Positions 1 through 17,838 of a DNA stretch of 25,178 nucleotides are shown here, piece after piece. The DNA lies in NCBI GenBank assembly GCA_041690795.1, contig JBEPVV010000001.1:1-25178 (forward strand), read 5' to 3'. How positions within the stretch are numbered: position 1 is the stretch's first letter; every line of letters starts with the position of its first letter. This DNA is from Gemmatimonadota bacterium. GTDB taxonomy: Bacteria; Gemmatimonadota; Gemmatimonadetes; Gemmatimonadales; GWC2-71-9. Made by a program: the position numbers and the translations under genes. The notes beneath the pieces are model-generated. The model did no database searches, was not told the DNA's origin, and worked only from the letters and a program-made list of their open reading frames with translations.

Positions 1-1520
1 TGGTAGAGGTCGGGAAGGATGGATCCGTCGACGGGACCCTCGATGCACAGGGCCACCACCCGGAAGTCGACGCCGAGTCTCCGCAGCGAGGCGATGCGGT
101 GGTTGGAATCGAGCAGCAGGTTGGTTCCGTTGCCGCCGACGATCCAGAGCGGAATACTCGAACCCACGTTGCCGCGCACCATGGCGGTGTCGCTACCGCC
201 GTGCAGATACAGGCGGATCGCGCGGGTATCCGCGGCGTCGAAGCGGCGGTGGTACCACGGCGGAAGTGCACCCGATTGCAACTCGACGTCGACGTGACGG
301 TCGTCAACCCGGGTGATCGTTGCATGATCGGCCGCGTCGGTTGCGTGCACGTCGACTGCAGCCGCGAGGAACGCATAGAATCGTGACGCCGCGCCTGGCA
401 ACCCGTCGCGGCGCAGCCGGAGCGTGTGCACAACGTCGGGTGCAGCCGATCGATATTCGCGCGGCAGCGCGGCCACCGCGGCGTCGATCACTGAATCGCG
501 GAGTCGCATCACCAGCGAGTGGGCGATGGAATCGAATATTGGCCGGTCGAGACCGGACAGCATCCGCCGGTCGAACTCCCGGCTGTTGATCGTCAAGCCG
601 GTCATAGTCCCATAGGTGCTGTCGAACTTCATCAGATACGGATAGGCGTGGCTTGCGAGGTCGAGCAGGAAACCGCTGTACGAGATGAACGCCTTGTCGC
701 GGTCACGGGCGATCGGCTCCCAGGGCGCGGATTCGGCGCTGTCGAACTGCGCCCACTTCCATTGCTTGGGGTGACGGTCCCAGTCGTTCAGGAACATGTC
801 CATCAGGCGAGCCGTCAGGAATGCGCGCGCGTCGACCTGCGCCTGCGAGTCACGATCGATGAGTTGCAACAGCGTGTCGCTGTCGATGACGCGCAATGCG
901 CCGCGAAAACCCGCTGCATGTTTTGGTTTCGACGGGAATTCCTCGATCATGCCAAGGCGTCCGGCGAACTTCTTCCGGAACTCCCCCAGCAGCGAATCGT
1001 CCGGCATCACCACCAGCACCGGTGCGGGGTTCAGCACCGAAGCGGCGTCCAGTAGTTGGGTCGCGACCACTGCTGAGGCCGGGAAGCTGCTGCTGACCTG
1101 GTCGAGCGCAATACGCTCGACCGCCGTCCCTTTCCACTCCGCCGGCACCTCGACCGCATCCTTGTCGACCGATCGAAATACGTATTCGGTACCCGACGCG
1201 GCGCGGAACCGCAGCGAAGCGGTCTGGACCCCTCCGCCCGCCTTGAGCGGTTTGATTCCGCCGGCGAACGTCGTCAGGTTGAGCACCGGCGCCCTGATTG
1301 GCGTAATCCAGAGGTCGCGATAGTAACCGCCCAGTAGTGATCGATGGAAGTTGCCGGCGCGAAAGTGCGCACCCGCGGCGACCATCACCGAATCGGGCGA
1401 ATCGACAACCGGTGGGGTCGAAGACGTCTGTGAACGCAGTGCTCCGGGCGTGATCGTCGCTGCGGCAATGCCGACGAGCGCGATTCTCCCCAACCGGCAG
1501 AAACGCCGTCGCAGAATCAT
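1..1520 (-). CDS. Large secreted protein, 3'-partial (runs off left edge). Matches the central region of the metallophosphoesterase/BamA-TamA-type outer-membrane protein family and has atypical-kinase-like motifs
   Basis: Hand translation; absent from the ORF track because there is no stop inside the window. ATG at 1520 overlaps the upstream TGA (ATGA), and I found no stop down to base 1. The N-terminus MILRRRFCRLGRIALVGIAAATITPGALRSQ looks like a signal peptide. Motifs: YRDLWITPI, GGGVQTASLRF, EYVFRSVDK, FLTARLMDMFLNDWDRHPKQWKW, PIARDRDKAF, IRLYLHGGSD. The family assignment is recalled, and any beta-barrel would lie outside the window. Confidence 0.85.
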   Translation of the reverse strand, partial: MILRRRFCRLGRIALVGIAAATITPGALRSQTSSTPPVVDSPDSVMVAAGAHFRAGNFHRSLLGGYYRDLWITPIRAPVLNLTTFAGGIKPLKAGGGVQTASLRFRAASGTEYVFRSVDKDAVEVPAEWKGTAVERIALDQVSSSFPASAVVATQLLDAASVLNPAPVLVVMPDDSLLGEFRKKFAGRLGMIEEFPSKPKHAAGFRGALRVIDSDTLLQLIDRDSQAQVDARAFLTARLMDMFLNDWDRHPKQWKWAQFDSAESAPWEPIARDRDKAFISYSGFLLDLASHAYPYLMKFDSTYGTMTGLTINSREFDRRMLSGLDRPIFDSIAHSLVMRLRDSVIDAAVAALPREYRSAAPDVVHTLRLRRDGLPGAASRFYAFLAAAVDVHATDAADHATITRVDDRHVDVELQSGALPPWYHRRFDAADTRAIRLYLHGGSDTAMVRGNVGSSIPLWIVGGNGTNLLLDSNHRIASLRRLGVDFRVVALCIEGPVDGSILPDLY

Positions 1521-2431
1521 CGCGGCCACCGATAGAGCGTGATCGCGCCAGGAGAACTTTCGCCTTCGTCACTGACGATCAGCACGCCGTCTCGGGTGAT
1601 CGCTACCCCTTCGGGCTGCGAGTGCCCGGAAGGAAGTGGCCGCGCGAAGACGACCTCGCCTGCCGGAGTGATTTCGATGATCGCCTTCTCTTTCGACGCC
1701 ACGAGTACGTAGTTGCCGCTGCGCGGGTCGATCGTGATGTCGGACGGATGGACGCCGTCCCAGCCGTTGTTGCCGACCAGTTTGTCAAACGCCACCCCGA
1801 TATGCTCGACCGTGTCGGTGCTCGCGTGAGGGATCTTCCAGCGGAAGATGATGACCGAGTCACGCATGCCCTTGTCATGAACGCGCTTGCAACCCAGCAG
1901 CAAGGCGTTGATGTGCGGATCGAAGGTCATCGCCTCGAATTCGCACTTGCTGCCCAGGTCGGTGTCTTCGCGCGTGTAGGGCACAGCCGTGGAATCGCCG
2001 ATCGCGAAATGATAGAGCACCCCTTCGCTGTCCATCAGGTAGAGCGAATCGCCGACCGAGGTGATCGCCTCGAAGTCCCCGTGAATCGCGGGGTTGCCCA
2101 CGTCGAACTCGCGCTCGATCACGCCGCGTCGGTAGTCGATCTGGTAGATCCGCGCCCGCTCGTCGCCGTGAGTGAAAAGCCGGCCATCGGCCGTGAGCGC
2201 CAGGCCCGAGATTTCCTTGAGTCGCGCCGGCAGCTCCCAGCGCGCGATCGGTGCGTCGCCATCGCGCTCGCCCGAGTGTGCCAGTGCCTCGCGGAAGTGC
2301 GCCTCTCGCTGCACGACGACAATGCTGTCAGCCCGGGCCTGCGCGCGAAACGCCTGCTTCCCGCATGCCGTCAGCAGGGACAGCGCGCCCAGCCCCAGCA
2401 GCCCACCCGACCGCCAACGCCCGGCGTTCAC
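1517..2431 (-). CDS. SdiA-regulated (YjiK-like) beta-propeller domain lipoprotein
   Basis: 304 aa. GTG start overlaps the upstream stop (GTGA). Lipobox LLTAC. Repeated blade motifs: LKEISGLA...LFTHGDE, GDFEAIT, EFEAMTFD, HPSDITID, QPEGVAITRDGVLIVSDEG. Confidence 0.85.
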   Translation of the reverse strand: MNAGRWRSGGLLGLGALSLLTACGKQAFRAQARADSIVVVQREAHFREALAHSGERDGDAPIARWELPARLKEISGLALTADGRLFTHGDERARIYQIDYRRGVIEREFDVGNPAIHGDFEAITSVGDSLYLMDSEGVLYHFAIGDSTAVPYTREDTDLGSKCEFEAMTFDPHINALLLGCKRVHDKGMRDSVIIFRWKIPHASTDTVEHIGVAFDKLVGNNGWDGVHPSDITIDPRSGNYVLVASKEKAIIEITPAGEVVFARPLPSGHSQPEGVAITRDGVLIVSDEGESSPGAITLYRWPR

Positions 2432-3522
2432 TTCGCCTCGCGCTTCTCGGTGGCGACCGGGTCGCCGATTTCCAGGTCAACCGCGAGCACCTTGTCCCCA
2501 GCGCTCGCGCGCACCGCCGTGAGGAACCGATCCCGCGTGATTTCCTTCCGCACGCCGACGAGATAGTACAACTCCGACGGCTTGCCTTCGTTGGTGATCA
2601 CCTGATCGAGGCGCCAGCGGCGTGCCAGTCCGTCCAGCACCACCTGGATCCGCTCCTGCGCTTCGCTCAGTGATTCGGTCGTGACCGAGAGGATCGCGTT
2701 GAATCGCGGTTTTTTCTTCGTCGGGCCGAGGATCTTCCGTACCCGGTTGAATCGCTTTGCGAGGGCTGCGGCCTTCTTGGGGCTGAGCGCCAGCACCAGG
2801 TCGCGGTCAGGGACGCTGACGGCATCGACCCGGTTGTCGGCGAGTTCGGTCAACGGCTCGGTCCAGGCAGATGCCGCAGTCGGCTCGAGCACGTTGCGGC
2901 CGAAGTCGTATCGCCATGTCAGCAGCACCACGAAGTTGAAGACGATCGACAGTACCGCTGCCACTGTCAGCGACTCGACGCCCGCCGCCAACCCGACTCC
3001 GATACCCAGGAAGATGTACACCGTGTCGCGCACGTCTCGCATGGTGGTCCGGAATCGCAGTCCGGCCACGATACCGCCGAGGCTGAATGCGAGCGCAAGG
3101 CTGGTGCGAACGACAAGCACGATGCCCGCGACGACGATCGGCAGGATAATCAGCGTCTGCACGATCGACTGGTTGAAGTCACGCGTTCGCCGTGCTGACA
3201 TGAAGACCCAGCTCACCGGGAGCATCAGCGCCAGCGTACTCATCATTACCATCACCGCGGTGATAGTCAGATCCAGCCGGGAGCTGCCGTCCGCAATTGG
3301 ACCACCCTTGCCCTTGGCCGCGGCTAGTCCGTCATCGAGCAGCTGCGGATTCTTGGTGATATCCTGGATGTGCTCACCGGAGAGGAGCCGGTCGAAGAAG
3401 GGGATGAAATGGAAGAGGAGGAAGACGACCGCGCCCAGCACGACATAGTAGGCGATCAGGCGGCGGATGGGTCGGTCCGAACCGAGGGTGAAAAAGTCGA
3501 TCAGACGTTTGAACCAACCCAT
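2428..3522 (-). CDS. DUF4956 domain membrane protein with extra N-terminal helices and a C-terminal soluble domain
   Basis: 364 aa with several hydrophobic segments. The core SLALAFSLGGIVAGLRFRTTMRDVRDTVYIFLGIGVGLAAG is the DUF4956 signature. Confidence 0.85.
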   Translation of the reverse strand: MGWFKRLIDFFTLGSDRPIRRLIAYYVVLGAVVFLLFHFIPFFDRLLSGEHIQDITKNPQLLDDGLAAAKGKGGPIADGSSRLDLTITAVMVMMSTLALMLPVSWVFMSARRTRDFNQSIVQTLIILPIVVAGIVLVVRTSLALAFSLGGIVAGLRFRTTMRDVRDTVYIFLGIGVGLAAGVESLTVAAVLSIVFNFVVLLTWRYDFGRNVLEPTAASAWTEPLTELADNRVDAVSVPDRDLVLALSPKKAAALAKRFNRVRKILGPTKKKPRFNAILSVTTESLSEAQERIQVVLDGLARRWRLDQVITNEGKPSELYYLVGVRKEITRDRFLTAVRASAGDKVLAVDLEIGDPVATEKREAK

Positions 3523-3526
3523 GAAT

Positions 3527-3588
3527 CCGCCGTGTAAAGGATATGTAACGGAGAGGGGACGGCTTAACCCCCTCCGCCTACACGCGGC
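3527..3588. other. Nested imperfect inverted repeat filling the DUF4142-DUF4956 intergenic region
   Basis: Outer arms CCGCCGTGTA / TACACGCGG; inner arms CGGAGAGGGG / CCCCCTCCG; bulged. No U-tract, so the function is unclear. Confidence 0.45.
3533..3548. promoter_or_regulatory. Candidate OmpR/PhoB-family operator: TGTAA direct repeat at 11-bp period
   Basis: TGTAA at 3533-3537 and 3544-3548 (minus strand GTTACA-TATCC-TTTACA), 11-26 nt upstream of the DUF4956 ATG. It overlaps a TANNNT (TATCCT, 3543-3538). Confidence 0.35.
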
Positions 3589-4140
3589 TTACTTCCCAAT
3601 ACCAGCCAACAGCGTTTCGCCGGCCTTTTCGTGCTGCACGAATACCGGTGCCACGCGGTCGACCAGCGCCTTGAGCTCGGCATTCTGGATCGCGGGCAGC
3701 AGCGTGCCCGTAACGGCGGCGATGACGGCCTTGTGGTAGGCGATCTCATGTTCGAGGAAGGCGTGATCGAAGCCGACGCCATGAGCAGCAGCGCGCAGCG
3801 TCTTCATCGCGGCGGCATGCGCCTCGGCGCTGGCCCTGCCGGCCGGCGGGGTCGGCGTGACGCCCAGCTTTTTCGCCAGGTCACGTCCCTGCTGGCGGGC
3901 ATCGGTGTGGGCCTTGACCAGCATCGCGCCGTAGTCGCGAACCGCTTGGGTCGATCCCTTGGTGGCGCCGAGCTTGCCGGTCTCGATGTCATCGGTGTTG
4001 GCGCCGTCGTAGATGGCCACGATAGTCGCATCGTCGAGGGCGACGCGGAGTGCGTCCGTGGCTGCCGGGGCCGGAATGACGCGGGCAGGCGCAGGAGCTG
4101 CGGCGAGGGCAGCGAGCGTGGAGATCAGGATGAGCGACAT
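3589..4140 (-). CDS. DUF4142 domain (ferritin-like) exported protein
   Basis: Start placed at ATG 4140 behind GGAGG. Signal peptide MSLILISTLAALAAAPAPA. Motifs: VRDYGAMLVKAH, LAKKLGVTP, FDHAFLEHEIAYHKAVI, IQNAELKALV. Confidence 0.85.
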   Translation of the reverse strand: MSLILISTLAALAAAPAPARVIPAPAATDALRVALDDATIVAIYDGANTDDIETGKLGATKGSTQAVRDYGAMLVKAHTDARQQGRDLAKKLGVTPTPPAGRASAEAHAAAMKTLRAAAHGVGFDHAFLEHEIAYHKAVIAAVTGTLLPAIQNAELKALVDRVAPVFVQHEKAGETLLAGIGK

Positions 4141-4194
4141 GGATCCTCCATTTGGGTGGCAAGCGGGCCGAGGTTTCGGCTGGGCAGGGAACAT

Positions 4195-6730: not shown

Positions 6731-7362
6731 TTGATCCCATCGAAGGCGCAGCCGCAACACCCGTTACGCGTCGCAGTGTGGTCGGCGCCCTCGCAGCCAC
6801 GGCCGGCGCGTTCATGATTCCCCGGCCGGCGCAGGCGGTCGAAGCCTCGCGCGTGGCTACGATCAGCCGCAACGCGGCCGCGCTTCGCGGCGCCGCGTAT
6901 TCTCCGAAGGTCTACTCTGCTCATGAGTGGGCGACAGTGCAATTGCTGGTGAACTACATCATCCCCAAGGACGCGACCAGCGGCTCGGCTACCGACGCTG
7001 CCGTGCCGGAATTCATGGATACGATGCTCGACCTCGAACCCGGGATGCGCACCGCGAATCGCGGCGGGCTGGCCTGGATCGATCATCAATCGCATCAGCG
7101 CTTCGACAAGGACTTCGTCGACGGAACCGATGCCCAGCGCCGCCAGCTGCTCGACGACATCGCCTATCCGGCGAAGAGCAAGCCGGAGATGGCGATGGGC
7201 GTGGCGTGGTTCAACTCCTTTCGTGATTTCACTGCCACCGGATTCTTCACCTCCGAGCTGGGAGTGAAGGATCTCGGCTACCAGGGAAACACGGCGGTCC
7301 CCGAATGGACCGGATGTCCGCCGGAGAACTACACCCGCCTCGGTACGAGCAAGCCATCGTGA
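6727..7362 (+). CDS. Gluconate 2-dehydrogenase subunit 3 family protein (Tat-exported small subunit)
   Basis: GTGA overlap with GMC. Twin-arginine TRRSVV plus hydrophobic stretch and AQA. Motifs: IIPKDATSGSATDAAVPEFMD, FRDFTATGFFTSELGVKDLGYQGN. Confidence 0.88.
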   Translation: MIDPIEGAAATPVTRRSVVGALAATAGAFMIPRPAQAVEASRVATISRNAAALRGAAYSPKVYSAHEWATVQLLVNYIIPKDATSGSATDAAVPEFMDTMLDLEPGMRTANRGGLAWIDHQSHQRFDKDFVDGTDAQRRQLLDDIAYPAKSKPEMAMGVAWFNSFRDFTATGFFTSELGVKDLGYQGNTAVPEWTGCPPENYTRLGTSKPS

Positions 7363-8612
7363 AGCGCGATAACAATACCGGTCGCCTCGGCATCGGTTTC
7401 GTCGGGTCCGGGTTCAACACCCGCTTTCACATTCAGGGGTGGACCGGCGTACGCGACGCCGACGTCCTCGGCGTCTGGAGTCCCAACACGAAGAACGCAG
7501 CGAGTGCGGCTGCGTTGTCGAAGACGCTTGGCGTCGGCGACGCGAAGGCGTATCGATCGATTGCCGAGATGGTGAGCGACCCAGCGATCGATGCGATCTG
7601 GTTGTGCGGGCCGAATCAGGCGCGCGTCGAGAATGTTGAAGAGATCTGTGACGCGCTCCAGCGCGGCAAGGGGGAACTCCGGGGCATTGCCTGCGAGAAG
7701 CCGCTGGCGCGCGGTGTGGCCGAGGCGAAGCACGTGCTCAAGCTGGTGGAGCGCACCGGTATCATGCACGGATATCTGGAAAACCAGTTGTTTGCGCCGG
7801 GTGTCACTCGCGGTCGCGACCTGATCTGGGCCCGCGGTGCTGCGGCGACCGGTCGGCCGTACCTCGCCCGTGCAGCAGAGGAGCACTCGGGTCCGCACAA
7901 TGCCTGGTTCTGGCAGGGTGAGAAGCAGGGCGGTGGCGTCCTTAACGACATGATGTGTCATTCGGTCGAGGTGGTGCGCTTCCTGTTGACCGAGCCGGGC
8001 GCAGCGCGCTCGACCCTGCGTCCGGTTTCGGTGGCTGGACGGATCGCCTCATTGAAGTGGAGCAGGCCGGAGTATGCGAAGCAGTTGAAGGCGCGGTTCG
8101 GCAAGGAGGTTGACTACACGAAGCGGCCGTCGGAAGACTTCGCGTCGGTGACGATCACCTACGAAACGCCGGATGGTCTGCCCGCAATCGGCGAAGCGAC
8201 CACCTCATGGAGTTTCGTCGGGCCGGGGCTGCGCCTGTCAGCCGAATTGCTGGGGCCTGAATATTCGATGAACTGGAACTCGCTCAACTCGGAACTCGCC
8301 TGTTTTTTTTCCCGCGAGGTGAAGGGACACGCGGGCGAAGACCTGGTTGAAAAACAGAATGCCGAAATGGGACTGATGCCGGTGGTGCCCGACGAAGCGG
8401 CCACGTACGGTTACGTCAACGAGGATCGTCACTTCGTGCGCGCCTTCCTCGGCAAGGAGGCGGCGATGCTGACGTGGCACGACGGTCTCGAGGTGATGCA
8501 GATCCTGATGACGGCGTACATGAGCGCCGAACAGGGCAAGACGCTCGCGTTTCCGCCGCGCGGGCTGGATGGATTCCTCCCGGCGGTGGCGAGGGGCGCA
8601 TGGCAACCCTGA
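7359..8612 (+). CDS. Gfo/Idh/MocA family NAD(P)-dependent oxidoreductase
   Basis: Start placed at GTG 7359 (GTGA overlap). [10 protein letters not shown] Rossmann start, [18 protein letters not shown]. No export signal seen. Confidence 0.9.
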
Positions 8613-8965
8613 AGCATCGCGGGCAGGAAATTCCCCACGAACTGACGACGACGGCGTTCGAGATTCCGGGTTGCCATGTGGTGCAGTCGCTGGGACTGGT
8701 GCGCGGGATCGTGGTGCGATCGCGCTCGGTCTTCGGCCGGGTCGGCGCCGGGATCCAGATGCTGTTCGGCGGCAACATCACCCTCTATACCTCGATGTGC
8801 GAGCAGGCGCGCGAGAACGCGTTCGAGATCATGCTCGCGCACGCGCAGAACGTCGGCGCCAACGCGGTGATCGGCGTGCGGTACGATGCGACCGAGATCA
8901 TGGCTGGCGTCTCGGAAGTGCTCTGTTACGGCACGGCAGTGATCGCCGAAGAGACAGTGGGGTAG
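8600..8965 (+). CDS. YbjQ/UPF0145 family protein
   Basis: Start placed at ATG 8600 (13-nt overlap). [12 protein letters not shown]...[19 protein letters not shown]...[11 protein letters not shown]...EVLCYGTAV. Confidence 0.88.
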
Positions 8966-8973
8966 GAGCGAGG

Positions 8974-9014
8974 CGAGAGACGAGAGGCGAGAGGCGAGAG
9001 GCGAGAGGCGAGAG
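8974..9014. repeat. Heptamer tandem repeat (CGAGAGG)x~6 between convergent genes
   Basis: CGAGAGA, then CGAGAGG x4, then CGAGAG, read directly; a degenerate CGAGG precedes it. Confidence 0.9.
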
Positions 9015-9015
9015 C

Positions 9016-9750
9016 TTAACTGATTGCGCGCTTGACCGCCGAGATCCTTTCGACATCGGTCACCTGGCGCGCGAGTTCGTCTGCGGGCAAGGCGCTCCGG
9101 AAACGAATATCGTGCGCGCGTCCGACGTCATGTTGCAGCATCGCGCCGCGCAGGTGCACTTCGGTCACGCCGGTGACGCCAACTAGTTCGACCGCGTTGG
9201 CGGCATTCACGCCGCTGCCGGCCATGATGATGATCCGCCCGGCCGCGGCGCGCACCAGGTCCCCGATCAACATGCGTCCCTCCCAGGCCGTCTGACGCTG
9301 GCCCGACGTCAGCAGCCGGTCGATGCCCAGCCGGATCAACGTGTCGAGTGCGGCGAACGGGTCACGGCAGACATCGAAGGCACGGTGGAACGTCAGCTGC
9401 ATATCGCGCGCGTCGCCGCGCAGCGCGGCGATGGTTGCCTCATCGACATCGCCATCCGCCGTCAGCGCTCCGACGACGGCGCCCTTTGCATTCATCGCCT
9501 GGAACAGTTGCAGGTCCGCTCGCATCACCGCGACATCGGTGGCGTCATAGACGAACCCGCCGCCGCGAGGCCGGACCATTGGGAAGACCGGGACGCCGGC
9601 CTGCTCGAGGGCGAGCACGAACACGCCGTGACTCGGCGTGGTGCCGGCATCGGCGAGGTTGTCGCAGAGTTCGAGGCGATCGGCACCGCCGCGCGTGGCC
9701 GCAAGCGCTGAGGCGAGGGAGTCGACGCAGGCTTCGATCAGCACCGGCAC
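9016..9750 (-). CDS. cutC: CutC family TIM-barrel protein (so-called copper homeostasis protein)
   Basis: Start placed at GTG 9750 (alternative 9744), just after the MFS stop. LIEACVDS, GGADRLELCDNLADAGTTPS, PMVRPRGGGFVY, TFHRAFD, RLLTSGQ, IMAGSGV, EVH. Confidence 0.92.
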   Translation of the reverse strand: MPVLIEACVDSLASALAATRGGADRLELCDNLADAGTTPSHGVFVLALEQAGVPVFPMVRPRGGGFVYDATDVAVMRADLQLFQAMNAKGAVVGALTADGDVDEATIAALRGDARDMQLTFHRAFDVCRDPFAALDTLIRLGIDRLLTSGQRQTAWEGRMLIGDLVRAAAGRIIIMAGSGVNAANAVELVGVTGVTEVHLRGAMLQHDVGRAHDIRFRSALPADELARQVTDVERISAVKRAIS

Positions 9751-14630: not shown

Positions 14631-15802
14631 CCGAACGGCTCTACTACCGCGACGCGCAAGTGCTGACGTTCGACGCGAACGTCATTGCCTGCGCCGGCGA
14701 TGCGACGCACATCCTGCTCGACCGGTCCGCGTTCTATCCCACATCTGGTGGTCAGCCGCACGACACGGGACGCCTCGGCGGCGTTCGCGTGATCAATGTG
14801 ATCGACACCGATGCGGGCGTCGTGCATGTAGTGGAGATGCCGGTGCCGCTTGGCCCGGTGCACGGCGAAGTCGACCGGGCGCGCCGCGAGGACCTTACGA
14901 TCCAGCATTCGGGTCAGCACCTGCTATCAGCGCTGGCCGCTGACCGTTTTGGCTGGGAAACGACGAGCGTGCATTTCGGTGACGAGGCGTCGACCATCGA
15001 GTTTGCGGTGGCGTCGACCCCGCCGGAGCGACTCACCGAGCTTGAGGACGCGGCGAATGCGGCGATCGGCAGCGCGCTGGAACTCAGCGTTTCCTTTGAA
15101 GAAGCTGCGGCGGCAACCCGCGCCGGGCTTCGCAAGCCAACCGATCGTTCCGGATTGGTTCGTGTGGTCACCATCGACGGCGTGGATCGCAGTGCCTGCG
15201 GCGGAACGCACGTGCGCCGGACCAGCGAACTCGGAATGATCATGGTCGGCGGGACGGAGCGGATCCGCGGCAATGTGCGGCTGAACTTCATCGCCGGCGC
15301 ACGAATCCTGCGCCGGCTGCGGAGCGTGCAGGAAACGCTCGACACGCTGGCAGCAGCAGCCGTCTGTGCGCCGGACGGTCTCACCGCGCTGATACCAGCG
15401 CGGCTGGCCGAGCTGAAGGATTTGCGCGCGAGGATGGCGGACGCCGAAGAACAACTTGCCCTGATGCGCCTGCGTGAATTGCAGTCACTGTCGGCGGCGG
15501 ACGCTGACGGCCTGCATCGTGTTGTCCATCGCGCCAGCAGTGAGTCCGCAGCGATGCTGCGCCAGATGGCGCAGGCCGTGTCGTCGATGCGGCGACTGCT
15601 CTTCATCACGCTCGATGAGAACGCGCGCACCGTTTACGTGGGGGCCAGCGCTGACACCGGGATCGACGCCGGTGCCCGGCTCAAGGCGGCGCTCGCCGCC
15701 GTCGGGGGTCGTGGCGGCGGCTCACCGCGACTCGCTCAGGGGACCGTTCCGACGAACGAGGCGCTTGAGGCACTTGTGGTTGCGCTTTCCCCGCCGGGGT
15801 GA
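14627..15802 (+). CDS. Free-standing alanyl-tRNA editing protein (AlaX/AlaXp-like) with C-terminal DHHA1/C-Ala domain
   Basis: Start placed at GTG 14627 (GTGA overlap). TERLYYRD, SAFYPTSGGQPHDTG, Zn motifs HSGQH and CGGTH, C-terminal GGRGGGSPRLAQG. At 391 aa it lacks an aminoacylation domain. Confidence 0.9.
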   Translation: MTERLYYRDAQVLTFDANVIACAGDATHILLDRSAFYPTSGGQPHDTGRLGGVRVINVIDTDAGVVHVVEMPVPLGPVHGEVDRARREDLTIQHSGQHLLSALAADRFGWETTSVHFGDEASTIEFAVASTPPERLTELEDAANAAIGSALELSVSFEEAAAATRAGLRKPTDRSGLVRVVTIDGVDRSACGGTHVRRTSELGMIMVGGTERIRGNVRLNFIAGARILRRLRSVQETLDTLAAAAVCAPDGLTALIPARLAELKDLRARMADAEEQLALMRLRELQSLSAADADGLHRVVHRASSESAAMLRQMAQAVSSMRRLLFITLDENARTVYVGASADTGIDAGARLKAALAAVGGRGGGSPRLAQGTVPTNEALEALVVALSPPG

Positions 15803-15869
15803 CCGGCGACATCCTCGTTCGGACGATTCCCATCGCGTTACCTTCCGGCATGATCATTCAGGGGCACGC

Positions 15870-16169
15870 GTGATCCGCTACGAGGTCACGCTCGAGTGTT
15901 CGGAGTCGACCGCACCCGCGCTTGAGCGCTGGATGCGGAACACGCACATCCCCGACATGCTGGCCACCGGGTGTTTTGTCGCGGTACACTTCGACACCAA
16001 TGACGGCCGCTTCCGCACGGTGTACCAGGCATCCGCCCGACCGCACCTCGATCGCTATCTCGACGAACACGCCGAGCGGCTGCGCGCCCAGTTCCGGGCA
16101 CAATTCCCCGATGGCGTCGCCGTGTCGCGCGACGTCTGGGAACAACTGCAGAGCTGGGCGCCGATGTGA
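15870..16169 (+). CDS. DUF4286 family protein (dimeric alpha/beta barrel-like)
   Basis: Start placed at GTG 15870. YEVTLE...WMRNTHIPDMLATGCF...YQA...LDRYLDEHAERLR. Confidence 0.8.
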   Translation: MIRYEVTLECSESTAPALERWMRNTHIPDMLATGCFVAVHFDTNDGRFRTVYQASARPHLDRYLDEHAERLRAQFRAQFPDGVAVSRDVWEQLQSWAPM

Positions 16170-17284
16170 TTCCGCGCTGTGCGATCAACCGCGTCACGTC
16201 ACCACCACCAGGCCTTACCGAATCGGCCGCACTCGCCGACATCGCCTGGTCGTTCCATCGAGGATTTCGCGGCTACGCTCCCACGCCTGTTCGTCGGCTC
16301 GACCAGCTCGCTGCTGAACTCGGCATCGGTTCTCTCCACGTCAAGGATGAGTCGCCGCGTTTCGGCCTCAACGCATTCAAGGGACTGGGCCCTTCATTCG
16401 CGATGCACCGCTGGCTCGCGACGCACGCGGTCGCGAGCGATGCGGTGTTTACCACAGCCACCGACGGAAACCACGGACGCGCCGTCGCGTGGATGGCGCG
16501 GCAGCTCGGTTTCCGGGCCGTGATCTACGTTCCCGCAAACACCGCCATGGATCGCATCGAGGCGATCAACAATGAGGGTGCCAAGGTCGTCCTCGTGACC
16601 GAGGGGTATGATGCCGCGGTGCGTCTCGCGCTGACCGCAGGCGAAGAAAAAGGCTGGATCGTGATTCAGGACACTGCGGTGCCCGGATACGTGGACGTCC
16701 CGGCGTGGATCGGCGCCGGTTACTGGACGATGGCGCGCGAGCTCGAAACAACGCTGCATCTTCCGGCCAGGGCCGACGTCGATCTCGTGCTGGTGCATGC
16801 CGGCGTCGGTACCTGGCCCGCAGCGATGGTCTCCTACTACTGGCATCGGTACGGGACGAATCGCCCTCGCATCGTCGTGGTCGAACCGACCGAAGCTGCC
16901 TGCGTGACCGAATCGATTGTCGCCGGACACCCGACACAGGCTACCGGGTCGCTGCGTACGATCATGGCGGGGCTGAACTGCGGCTTCCCATCAATCACGG
17001 CGTTCGAGACACTGCAATGCGGTGTCGATGCCTTCATCACGATTCCAGATCGCTGGGCCGAGCGCGCGATGCGCACGCTCGCCGCCCAGCAGCCACAGTT
17101 TATTTCGGGGGAATCCGGCAGTGCGAGCGTGGCGGGTCTCATGGCGCTCATGACCGACCCGGAATATGCTGCGGTACGCGAACATGTCGATCTCGGCGCC
17201 CAGACGCGGGTGCTGACATGGTCGACCGAAGGGGCAACCGATCCCGAAGGCTGGGAACTGATCGTGGGGCGGCCGCCGGAGTGA
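16166..17284 (+). CDS. dpaL: Diaminopropionate ammonia-lyase (PLP fold type II)
   Basis: 372 aa, GTGA overlap. VKDESPRFGLNAFK (PLP Lys), TATDGNHGRAVAW, IQDTAVPGY, GYWTM, AGVGTW, TIMAGLNCG, SGESG, STEGATDP. Confidence 0.85.
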   Translation: MIPRCAINRVTSPPPGLTESAALADIAWSFHRGFRGYAPTPVRRLDQLAAELGIGSLHVKDESPRFGLNAFKGLGPSFAMHRWLATHAVASDAVFTTATDGNHGRAVAWMARQLGFRAVIYVPANTAMDRIEAINNEGAKVVLVTEGYDAAVRLALTAGEEKGWIVIQDTAVPGYVDVPAWIGAGYWTMARELETTLHLPARADVDLVLVHAGVGTWPAAMVSYYWHRYGTNRPRIVVVEPTEAACVTESIVAGHPTQATGSLRTIMAGLNCGFPSITAFETLQCGVDAFITIPDRWAERAMRTLAAQQPQFISGESGSASVAGLMALMTDPEYAAVREHVDLGAQTRVLTWSTEGATDPEGWELIVGRPPE

Positions 17285-17304
17285 ACTTGACGCAGGAGCG
17301 TGCG

Positions 17305-17838
17305 ATGTCTGCTGATCCGAAATATCCAGTCGGGCGTTTTGTGCCGCCGCTCGCGTGGGATCCCGCAGCCACGTCTCAGTGGCTCGGCGACCTCGCCGCG
17401 CTACCCGCCAGCATCACGTCGGCCACAAGTGGCCTGAACGATCGCCAGCTCGACACGCCATATCGCGACGGCGGGTGGACAGTGCGTCAGGTCGTGCACC
17501 ACCTCGCCGATTCGCACCTCAACGCCTTCTGCCGTTGCCGGCTCGCGCTGACCGAAGAGGCGCCCGTCATCAAGCCGTACGAGGAGGCGCGCTGGGCCGA
17601 GCTGCCGGATGCCCGGACGGCGCCGATCGCGCTGTCGCTGCAGATTCTGGATGGCTTGCACCCACGATGGGTCGCGCTGCTGCAGGCTCTGACCACCGAA
17701 CAGTGGCAGCGGGTCTTTCATCATCCCGACCATGAACGTCCGCTGACGCTCTGGCACACAGCGGCGTTGTATGCATGGCACGGACGTCATCATACCGCCC
17801 ACGTCATCGCGCTGCGAGAGCAGCTGGGTTGGACATAA
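17305..17838 (+). CDS. bstA: YfiT/BstA family DinB-superfamily thiol (bacillithiol) S-transferase
   Basis: Start placed at ATG 17305 (GTG 17281 also possible). KYPVGRF, LDTPYRDGGWTVRQVVHHLADSH, IKPYEEARWAELPD, YAWHGRHHTAH. Confidence 0.88.
   Translation: MSADPKYPVGRFVPPLAWDPAATSQWLGDLAALPASITSATSGLNDRQLDTPYRDGGWTVRQVVHHLADSHLNAFCRCRLALTEEAPVIKPYEEARWAELPDARTAPIALSLQILDGLHPRWVALLQALTTEQWQRVFHHPDHERPLTLWHTAALYAWHGRHHTAHVIALREQLGWT

Follow-up and report, generated by a model that had tools for sequence, protein, structure and literature searches.

Can a reading frame that is cut by the end of a contig, and on which Pfam and NCBIfam give no useful match, be assigned a family, a fold and a role? 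The question is raised by the left edge of the window, the stretch of 25,178 nucleotides analyzed here, which comprises bases 1–25178 of contig C1 of a MAG that is 58% complete and consists of 369 contigs. A minus-strand frame of at least 506 codons with a signal-peptide-like N-terminus and an atypical-kinase-like motif set had been described there in an earlier note. The ORF listing contains this frame (3–1529, minus strand, 509 aa from a GTG at 1529, open at the left edge); an ATG at 1520–1518 (506 codons, 3–1520), taken as the start here with the GTG as the alternative, overlaps the TGA of the upstream gene (1519–1517) in an ATGA arrangement. The N-terminal composition, with five K/R followed by a hydrophobic 10-mer (mean Kyte-Doolittle 2.31) and no acidic residue, bears out the second half of the description. 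Homologues carry the same kind of N-terminus, often ending in A-x-A-Q, and when P0014, a syntenic homologue, was modeled at full length the region came out with low pLDDT, as expected of a signal peptide. By sequence comparison the frame is more than a chance one, as it has 871 close homologues, 2,902 clusters and motif residues that are near-invariant among 265 members. Arithmetic on the translation showed all four motif coordinates of the earlier note to be exact. The features of the frame are as follows.

3–1520, minus strand: partial CDS encoding the signal peptide, kinase-fold domain and beta module of an Omp85-family protein, its 3' end cut by the contig start
1431–1520, minus strand: signal-peptide-like N-terminus, about residues 4–33, a basic n-region followed by a hydrophobic core
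363–1295, minus strand: predicted protein-kinase-like fold domain, about residues 79–389, onto which an N-terminal extension (~45–78) packs
1221–1238, minus strand: Gly-rich loop GGGVQT, residues 98–103, between predicted beta1 and beta2
1161–1187, minus strand: beta3 motif EYVFRSVDK, residues 115–123, on a predicted strand
762–785, minus strand: putative catalytic-loop motif DWDRHPKQ (DWDRH, residues 249–253, at 785–771), aligning with FDRHNGNW of CtkA and the NwD Asp of CotH
687–707, minus strand: RDRDKAF, residues 275–281, the putative equivalent of the metal-binding DFG position by sequence and profile alignment
108–359, minus strand: all-beta module, about residues 391–474, eight strands in the predicted structure, linking the kinase-fold domain to the barrel
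3–107 (~35 codons) or 3 to ~101 (~33 codons), minus strand: last codons, which after ...LLDS match neither the family nor contig C31

Although individual Pfam searches of 70 members returned isolated sub-threshold matches only, the homologues revealed what kind of protein the frame encodes. They are ~850 aa long and come from Gemmatimonadota and Ignavibacteriales. Among the 871 close ones, those that are named belong to Gemmatimonadota, almost all are 820–880 aa long, and many end in an Omp85 domain (PF01103); Ignavibacteriales is represented by one named member, a distant one. An exhaustive HMMER scan yielded the 2,902 clusters at 50% identity. The family layout consists of a signal peptide, an unannotated conserved module (residues ~45–476 in the window protein) and a C-terminal 16-strand Omp85 barrel, while some relatives, such as P0257, add an N-terminal Metallophos domain. 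The earlier note had stated that relatives are annotated only as metallophosphoesterase or BamA/TamA proteins; indeed, AlphaFold-DB cluster representatives at TM 0.90–0.94 to the predicted model bear the names “Bacterial surface antigen (D15)”, “BamA/TamA family” or “Calcineurin-like phosphoesterase”. The full-length P0014 model (pLDDT 88.4) is divided into a kinase-like domain (~40–382), an all-beta module (~384–467), a short beta linker and 16 long strands (518–851), the last being the TamA/BamA-like barrel (PF01103) that marks the Omp85 superfamily. Between residue 384 and the barrel the model contains beta strands only, with no beta-alpha-alpha-beta-beta pattern of a POTRA domain. In the window protein, the all-beta module (108–359, minus strand) has two similar turns, LHGGsD and GGNGTN, occupies the place of the POTRA before the barrel, and gives a marginal profile match to the designed Ig-like protein 8bl3 (E 0.011). 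When 301 genomes of the phylum were sampled, 100 contained the conserved module, some with two to four matches and some with copies in tandem; tandem kinase-Omp85 duplicates within one operon were seen at L052 (7896–13214) and L058 (7793–13301), as well as on G319:C14. No description of a kinase-like or phosphoesterase-bearing Omp85 protein was found in the literature searched, whose journal coverage was incomplete, and the architecture is absent from the 2014 survey of the Omp85 superfamily. The protein represents a new family and a new architecture inside known superfamilies.

The window frame itself has no barrel. Since the window begins at contig base 1, the kinase-Omp85 gene is truncated by the assembly, and the earlier note had suggested a possible barrel anchor beyond the window and, as a check, extending the contig to the left. 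The contigs of the MAG were searched with the barrel of P0014 and with a Metallophos profile. Both the barrel and the continuation were found at the end of contig C31, where a barrel with 56% identity to that of P0014 (8316–9458, minus strand) lies in a frame that runs off the contig end at 9495. Directly downstream is a Metallophos lipoprotein gene (7298–8248), and beyond it C31 keeps synteny with locus L003 (AP_endonuc_2, 79% identity). The C31 frame begins SSTVAGHG...SYGGDTLFDRRP and fits the family exactly from the ...LLDSS point, the very point where the window ORF ceases to resemble its homologues. The last ~33 codons of the window ORF share the reading frame of the rest and probably arose as an artefact at the contig end; no second copy of the first ~104 nt of the window was found in the MAG. 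A frameshift at the 3' end was ruled out, as homology keeps to one frame and the other frames are without match. On sequence grounds, C1 and C31 should be joined at the ...LLDSS codons, with C31 (L082) 7298–9495 as the continuation. The true protein would then be ~870 aa long, and the window ORF would give its exported N-terminal ~476 residues, about two thirds.

What, then, is the N-terminal module? The earlier note had claimed a phosphotransferase fold, and a structure search for a kinase-like fold had been set beforehand as its test. An AlphaFold2 model of the module, built from a 70-sequence alignment, reached a pLDDT of 94.4 and a pTM of 0.93 and displays the bilobal fold of the PKL superfamily, with an N-lobe sheet and helix and a helical C-lobe with the catalytic loop. 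Foldseek searches against the PDB and Swiss-Prot models returned kinase folds for all top matches (CtkA, HipA/HipT, CotH, PI4K, Fam20C, PI3K, Rio2 and UbiB), and in a second, Foldseek-independent structure search of 48,161 chains, kinases filled all of the top 50 places. Model and searches therefore support the claim, kinase folds being top-ranked throughout. Sequence searches gave no significant link: phmmer with the single sequence against PDB sequences gave a vicilin chance match only, hmmsearch with the full-length profile gave no match in the same set, and the profile of the module alone reached CtkA at E 0.69, below significance. An hhalign comparison with a nine-sequence CotH profile gave a local P of 0.049 but no meaningful score globally, the N-lobe aligned too weakly in a greedy alignment for this to be used, and the nearest Pfam-bearing clusters in an ESM-Atlas feature search were CotH, HipA_2 and HipA_C, at low score. 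The sequence links to known kinases are individually insignificant, yet agree with each other and with the fold. Predicted structure thus supports the assignment of the module to an unannotated family of the protein-kinase-like superfamily, with PI4K type II, CotH and CtkA/HipA as its nearest structural relatives.

Residue conservation, counted across 265 members down to ~37% identity, was then set against this fold. The predicted strand order agrees with the kinase order of motifs that the earlier note had read from the sequence: the GGG lies between beta1 and beta2, R119 ends beta3, D143 falls within the helix after it, the D251-R-H-x-x-Q stretch comes behind a long helix, and a pair of short strands precedes D276-x-D278. 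In the Gly-rich loop, G99 is found in 250 members, G100 in 243 and T103 in 257. R119 and K123 are invariant (265/265). From the strand order in the model, R119 would occupy the position of the kinase ATP-binding Lys; the conserved beta3 Lys of the superfamily is accordingly replaced by Arg in every member, with the invariant K123 four residues on. In canonical kinases a K-to-R change at beta3 usually inactivates the enzyme. D143, the acidic residue in the helix after beta3, is present in 252 of 265 members and D244 in 262. The catalytic Asp and the downstream metal-binding residue that characterize the superfamily are both retained, D251 in 264 members and D276, 25 residues past it, also in 264, while R252 and D278 occur in all 265. 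Conservation of D-R-H and the downstream Asp, which the earlier note had named as a check, thus holds for D251, R252, D276 and D278 and is looser for H253, the least conserved residue of the D-R-H set (H in 243, G in 12). Position 256 is Q in 227 members and N in 37 (Q/N in 264/265). The family-wide departures from canonical kinases are two, Arg for the beta3 Lys and mostly Gln for the loop Asn.

Comparison with characterized systems places the family close to several of them and inside none. The best structural match of the module is PI4K type II alpha/beta (PDB 4pla, 4wtv, 4hnd), at 11% identity; the PI3_PI4_kinase HMM (PF00454) has no match on the window ORF or among 70 members. The DRHxxN loop of PI3/PI4-kinases appears here as D-R-H-x-x-[Q/N], only the minority of 37 members having the N, the equivalent of PI4KII K152 is Arg, and the palmitoylation insertion is missing. 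Unlike PI4KII, the family is bacterial, exported and fused to an Omp85 barrel, and a lipid substrate would be conjectural. Fam20C, the Golgi casein kinase (PDB 4kqa, 5yh0), is a more distant structural match; it is eukaryotic and its ATP is supplied by Golgi transporters. Among the CtkA, HipA and HipT kinases (PDB 3akk, 4pu3, 8ezr), it is CtkA whose residues 147–178 (FDRHNGNW...PIF) align with the DwDRHxxqW...PIp block of the family profile, a sensible local alignment at the non-significant E of 0.69 noted above. The HipA_C HMM (PF07804) reaches a single member out of 70, at E 0.3. HipA and HipT act as toxins in the cytoplasm and have antitoxin partners, whereas here there is neither an antitoxin nor a HipA N-terminal domain. 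The spore-coat kinase family CotH (PF08757; PDB 5jd9/5jda) is likewise a structural relative, from which the family differs by its fusion to an Omp85 barrel and by the lack of a VTC polyP polymerase partner. The CotH HMM gave no match on the window ORF, in the window genome (G000) or in the module-carrying congeners G002, G003, G006, G007, G012, G015 and G017, and matched 1 of the 70 members, at E 0.056. D251 and D276 of the family align with conserved CotH Asp columns in the weak hhalign alignment (P 0.049). In CotH, D228 and D251, 23 residues apart, are experimentally required (PMC7821199). Because it fails the sequence-model tests for CotH, PI3_PI4_kinase and HipA_C, the family is considered separate from all three.

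The overall layout, an N-terminal enzymatic domain followed by a 16-strand Omp85 barrel, is that of PlpD and the patatin-Omp85 (type Vd) proteins. An accessory, non-essential distribution and a likely role as a periplasmic envelope enzyme are also common to both. In contrast to PlpD, the family has a kinase fold instead of a patatin lipase (no patatin Pfam match was found on the window ORF), an all-beta module in place of a recognizable POTRA, and co-encoded phosphatases. The topology analogy is imperfect, as no POTRA is evident in the model.

The kinase-Omp85 gene is the third of three overlapping minus-strand genes in the window. The genes upstream are as follows.

2428–3522, minus strand: DUF4956 membrane protein, 364 aa, first gene of the cluster, overlapping the next gene by 4 nt
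1517–2431, minus strand: lipoprotein, 304 aa, with an LTAC lipobox and an SdiA-regulated / phytase-like propeller signature, translationally coupled and upstream of the kinase-Omp85 gene
3589–4194, minus strand: DUF4142 gene; the corresponding genes of L003 lie at 3200–3751 and 9609–10151

Loci L003–L006 show the same DUF4956–propeller–kinase-Omp85 order, and a Metallophos gene of ~320 aa comes next. Its product, a lipoprotein, retains its metal motifs intact and is similar to purple acid phosphatases. Metallophos genes of a second type share 44% identity with the fused domain of P0257. In 40 loci taken with ±8 kb, which were hand-picked and are phylogenetically related, so that counts are descriptive, a Metallophos gene of either type was present in 18, DUF4956 in 17 and the propeller lipoprotein in 14; any of the three occurred in 26 loci and none in 14. 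A distant family member is followed by a PF01663 phosphodiesterase gene. Complex prediction with P0014 residues 36–470 and the mature Metallophos protein of the operon scored 0.00 and gave no answer, counting neither for nor against an interface. DUF4142 genes also border the canonical operon, on one flank or on both, in a number of genomes (window, L003, L047, L061).

Gene sets of cotH, polyphosphate polymerase and DUF4956 are known in Gram-positives (bioRxiv 10.1101/768473). In the phylum studied here, four true CotH loci have DUF4956 within 1.5 kb, and in a congener a canonical 211-aa DUF4956 (L002:429–1064) lies 17 nt upstream of a bona fide CotH. Because it adjoins both CotH and kinase-Omp85 genes, DUF4956 partners two structurally related kinase-fold families. 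A search of five near-complete genomes that carry the operon did not recover the VTC polyP polymerase (PF09359). The DUF4956 proteins of the operon, at ~360 aa, have an extra C-terminal ~160 aa (window 2428–3039, minus strand), a region with a weak Atlas lead to MgtC_SapB_C (0.78); this extension may compensate for the lack of a VTC partner or have another role. At L057 (6367–10494, plus strand), a DUF4956-like region and a kinase-Omp85 share a single 1375-codon open frame, which may be a fusion or a run-on from high GC content. Two further neighbors accompany paralogues. A ~740-aa MFS/TLC ATP/ADP-transporter-like protein with HEAT repeats (L051:10580–12793, plus; L077:4682–6934, minus; L079:~15524–17401) is encoded immediately downstream of a kinase-Omp85 paralogue in two genomes; in a third the distance is ~5 kb. 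Its TLC match scores 23.2 bits against a cut-off of 21, and speculatively the protein could supply nucleotide to a periplasmic kinase. One divergent paralogue group is always followed by a ~720-aa protein without Pfam match (L066:4660–6813, minus; L067:10533–12689, plus; L068:10579–12741, plus), 61–80% identical among the three loci.

The data presented above have led us to propose, with a probability of roughly 0.6, that the best explanation of the locus is an exported kinase-fold module on an Omp85 barrel that is periplasmic, catalytically competent and part of an envelope phosphoryl-transfer system; catalysis, phosphate donor, substrate and periplasmic location are what we infer here. The kinase-fold domain would remain periplasmic and be tethered beneath the outer membrane, as in PlpD, and to our knowledge every characterized Omp85 protein, PlpD included, keeps such a domain there. 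Periplasmic placement is proposed because with an even number of strands both ends of the barrel face the periplasm and because the enzymatic domain of PlpD is periplasmic. The domain would transfer phosphoryl (or nucleotidyl) groups in a metal-dependent manner, the acceptor being an envelope substrate, be it lipid, glycan or protein. It would work with the co-encoded exported Metallophos lipoprotein, fused to it in other lineages, which may act on the same substrate or on the product of the kinase-fold module. In the clade of the window, the DUF4956 inner-membrane protein and the propeller lipoprotein would join, and the partners together could form an envelope phosphoryl-transfer and phosphoester-turnover system. 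As the periplasm is generally held to be without ATP (PMC11116518), an ATP-dependent kinase there would have no obvious donor. A stronger version of the proposal, which we put forward tentatively and at less than even odds, is that these proteins form a large undescribed family of active, outer-membrane-anchored periplasmic kinases, responsible for reversible phosphorylation of lipids, glycans or proteins of the Gram-negative envelope, opposed by the Metallophos phosphatases. The donor would then be something other than cytosolic ATP, or nucleotide obtained via a membrane partner, with delivery by DUF4956 or by the TLC/MFS-HEAT transporter found beside some paralogues.

The same lack of periplasmic ATP, together with the R119 and Q256 substitutions, keeps alive the notion of a pseudokinase, in which the module would bind nucleotide or another phosphorylated ligand and, without transfer, serve the Metallophos phosphatase under the outer membrane as scaffold, as sensor or as the subunit that presents the substrate. 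The Arg at the beta3 Lys position in 265/265 members, the Gln at the loop Asn position in 227/265 and a recurrent partner that is a hydrolase, in cis or in trans, all fit this notion. We nevertheless consider it unlikely, since loss of the catalytic Asp, the metal-binding Asp or the Gly loop, or of several of these, is usual in pseudokinases, whereas D251, D276, D278, R252 and G99/G100 remain near-invariant here down to ~37% identity. R119 and Q256, as atypical residues at two nucleotide- or metal-contacting positions, and the position of the family outside every known kinase family by sequence could also point to another chemistry, such as AMPylation (as in SelO), ATP-dependent ligation (as in SidJ) or phospho-anhydride hydrolysis. 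Kinase folds with non-kinase chemistry are established in SelO and SidJ. Here, however, the best structural matches are bona fide kinases, no SelO- or SidJ-type enzyme is among the top 50, and nothing positive speaks for any of these activities, which makes this explanation quite improbable.

Location offers a further choice. The kinase-fold domain might be exported through or beside its own barrel in a type V-like manner, be displayed on the surface or released, and act outside the cell on substrates of the environment or of neighboring cells, with extracellular nucleotides as donor. An N-terminal enzyme on an Omp85 barrel was originally read as type Vd secretion, the P0014 model shows no evident POTRA, and the structural relative CtkA is annotated as a cell-translocating kinase. 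By established Omp85 topology, an even-stranded barrel has both termini in the periplasm, and the 16 strands here would place them on that side. The partners, lipoproteins and an inner-membrane protein, also suit a periplasmic system. Moreover, the domain of PlpD was shown to remain in the periplasm, and passage of a folded domain through an Omp85 barrel is not known (PMC11116518). We thus regard a surface location as improbable and retain the periplasmic, catalytically competent module as the preferred reading.

If this reading is true, the family would be the second within Omp85, after patatin-Omp85 (PlpD), to carry an enzyme instead of POTRA-based assembly or translocation machinery. Its 2,902 clusters at 50% identity make it a large family of exported kinase-fold proteins in free-living FCB-group bacteria. 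The motif set, intact but unusual in its Arg on beta3 and Gln in the loop, lies in a compartment held to be without ATP, which raises the question of the phosphate donor. The pairing of DUF4956 with two kinase-fold families, CotH and kinase-Omp85, provides a handle on an uncharacterized membrane protein family, and thousands of database entries now called just “BamA/TamA family” or “metallophosphoesterase” could receive a new annotation.
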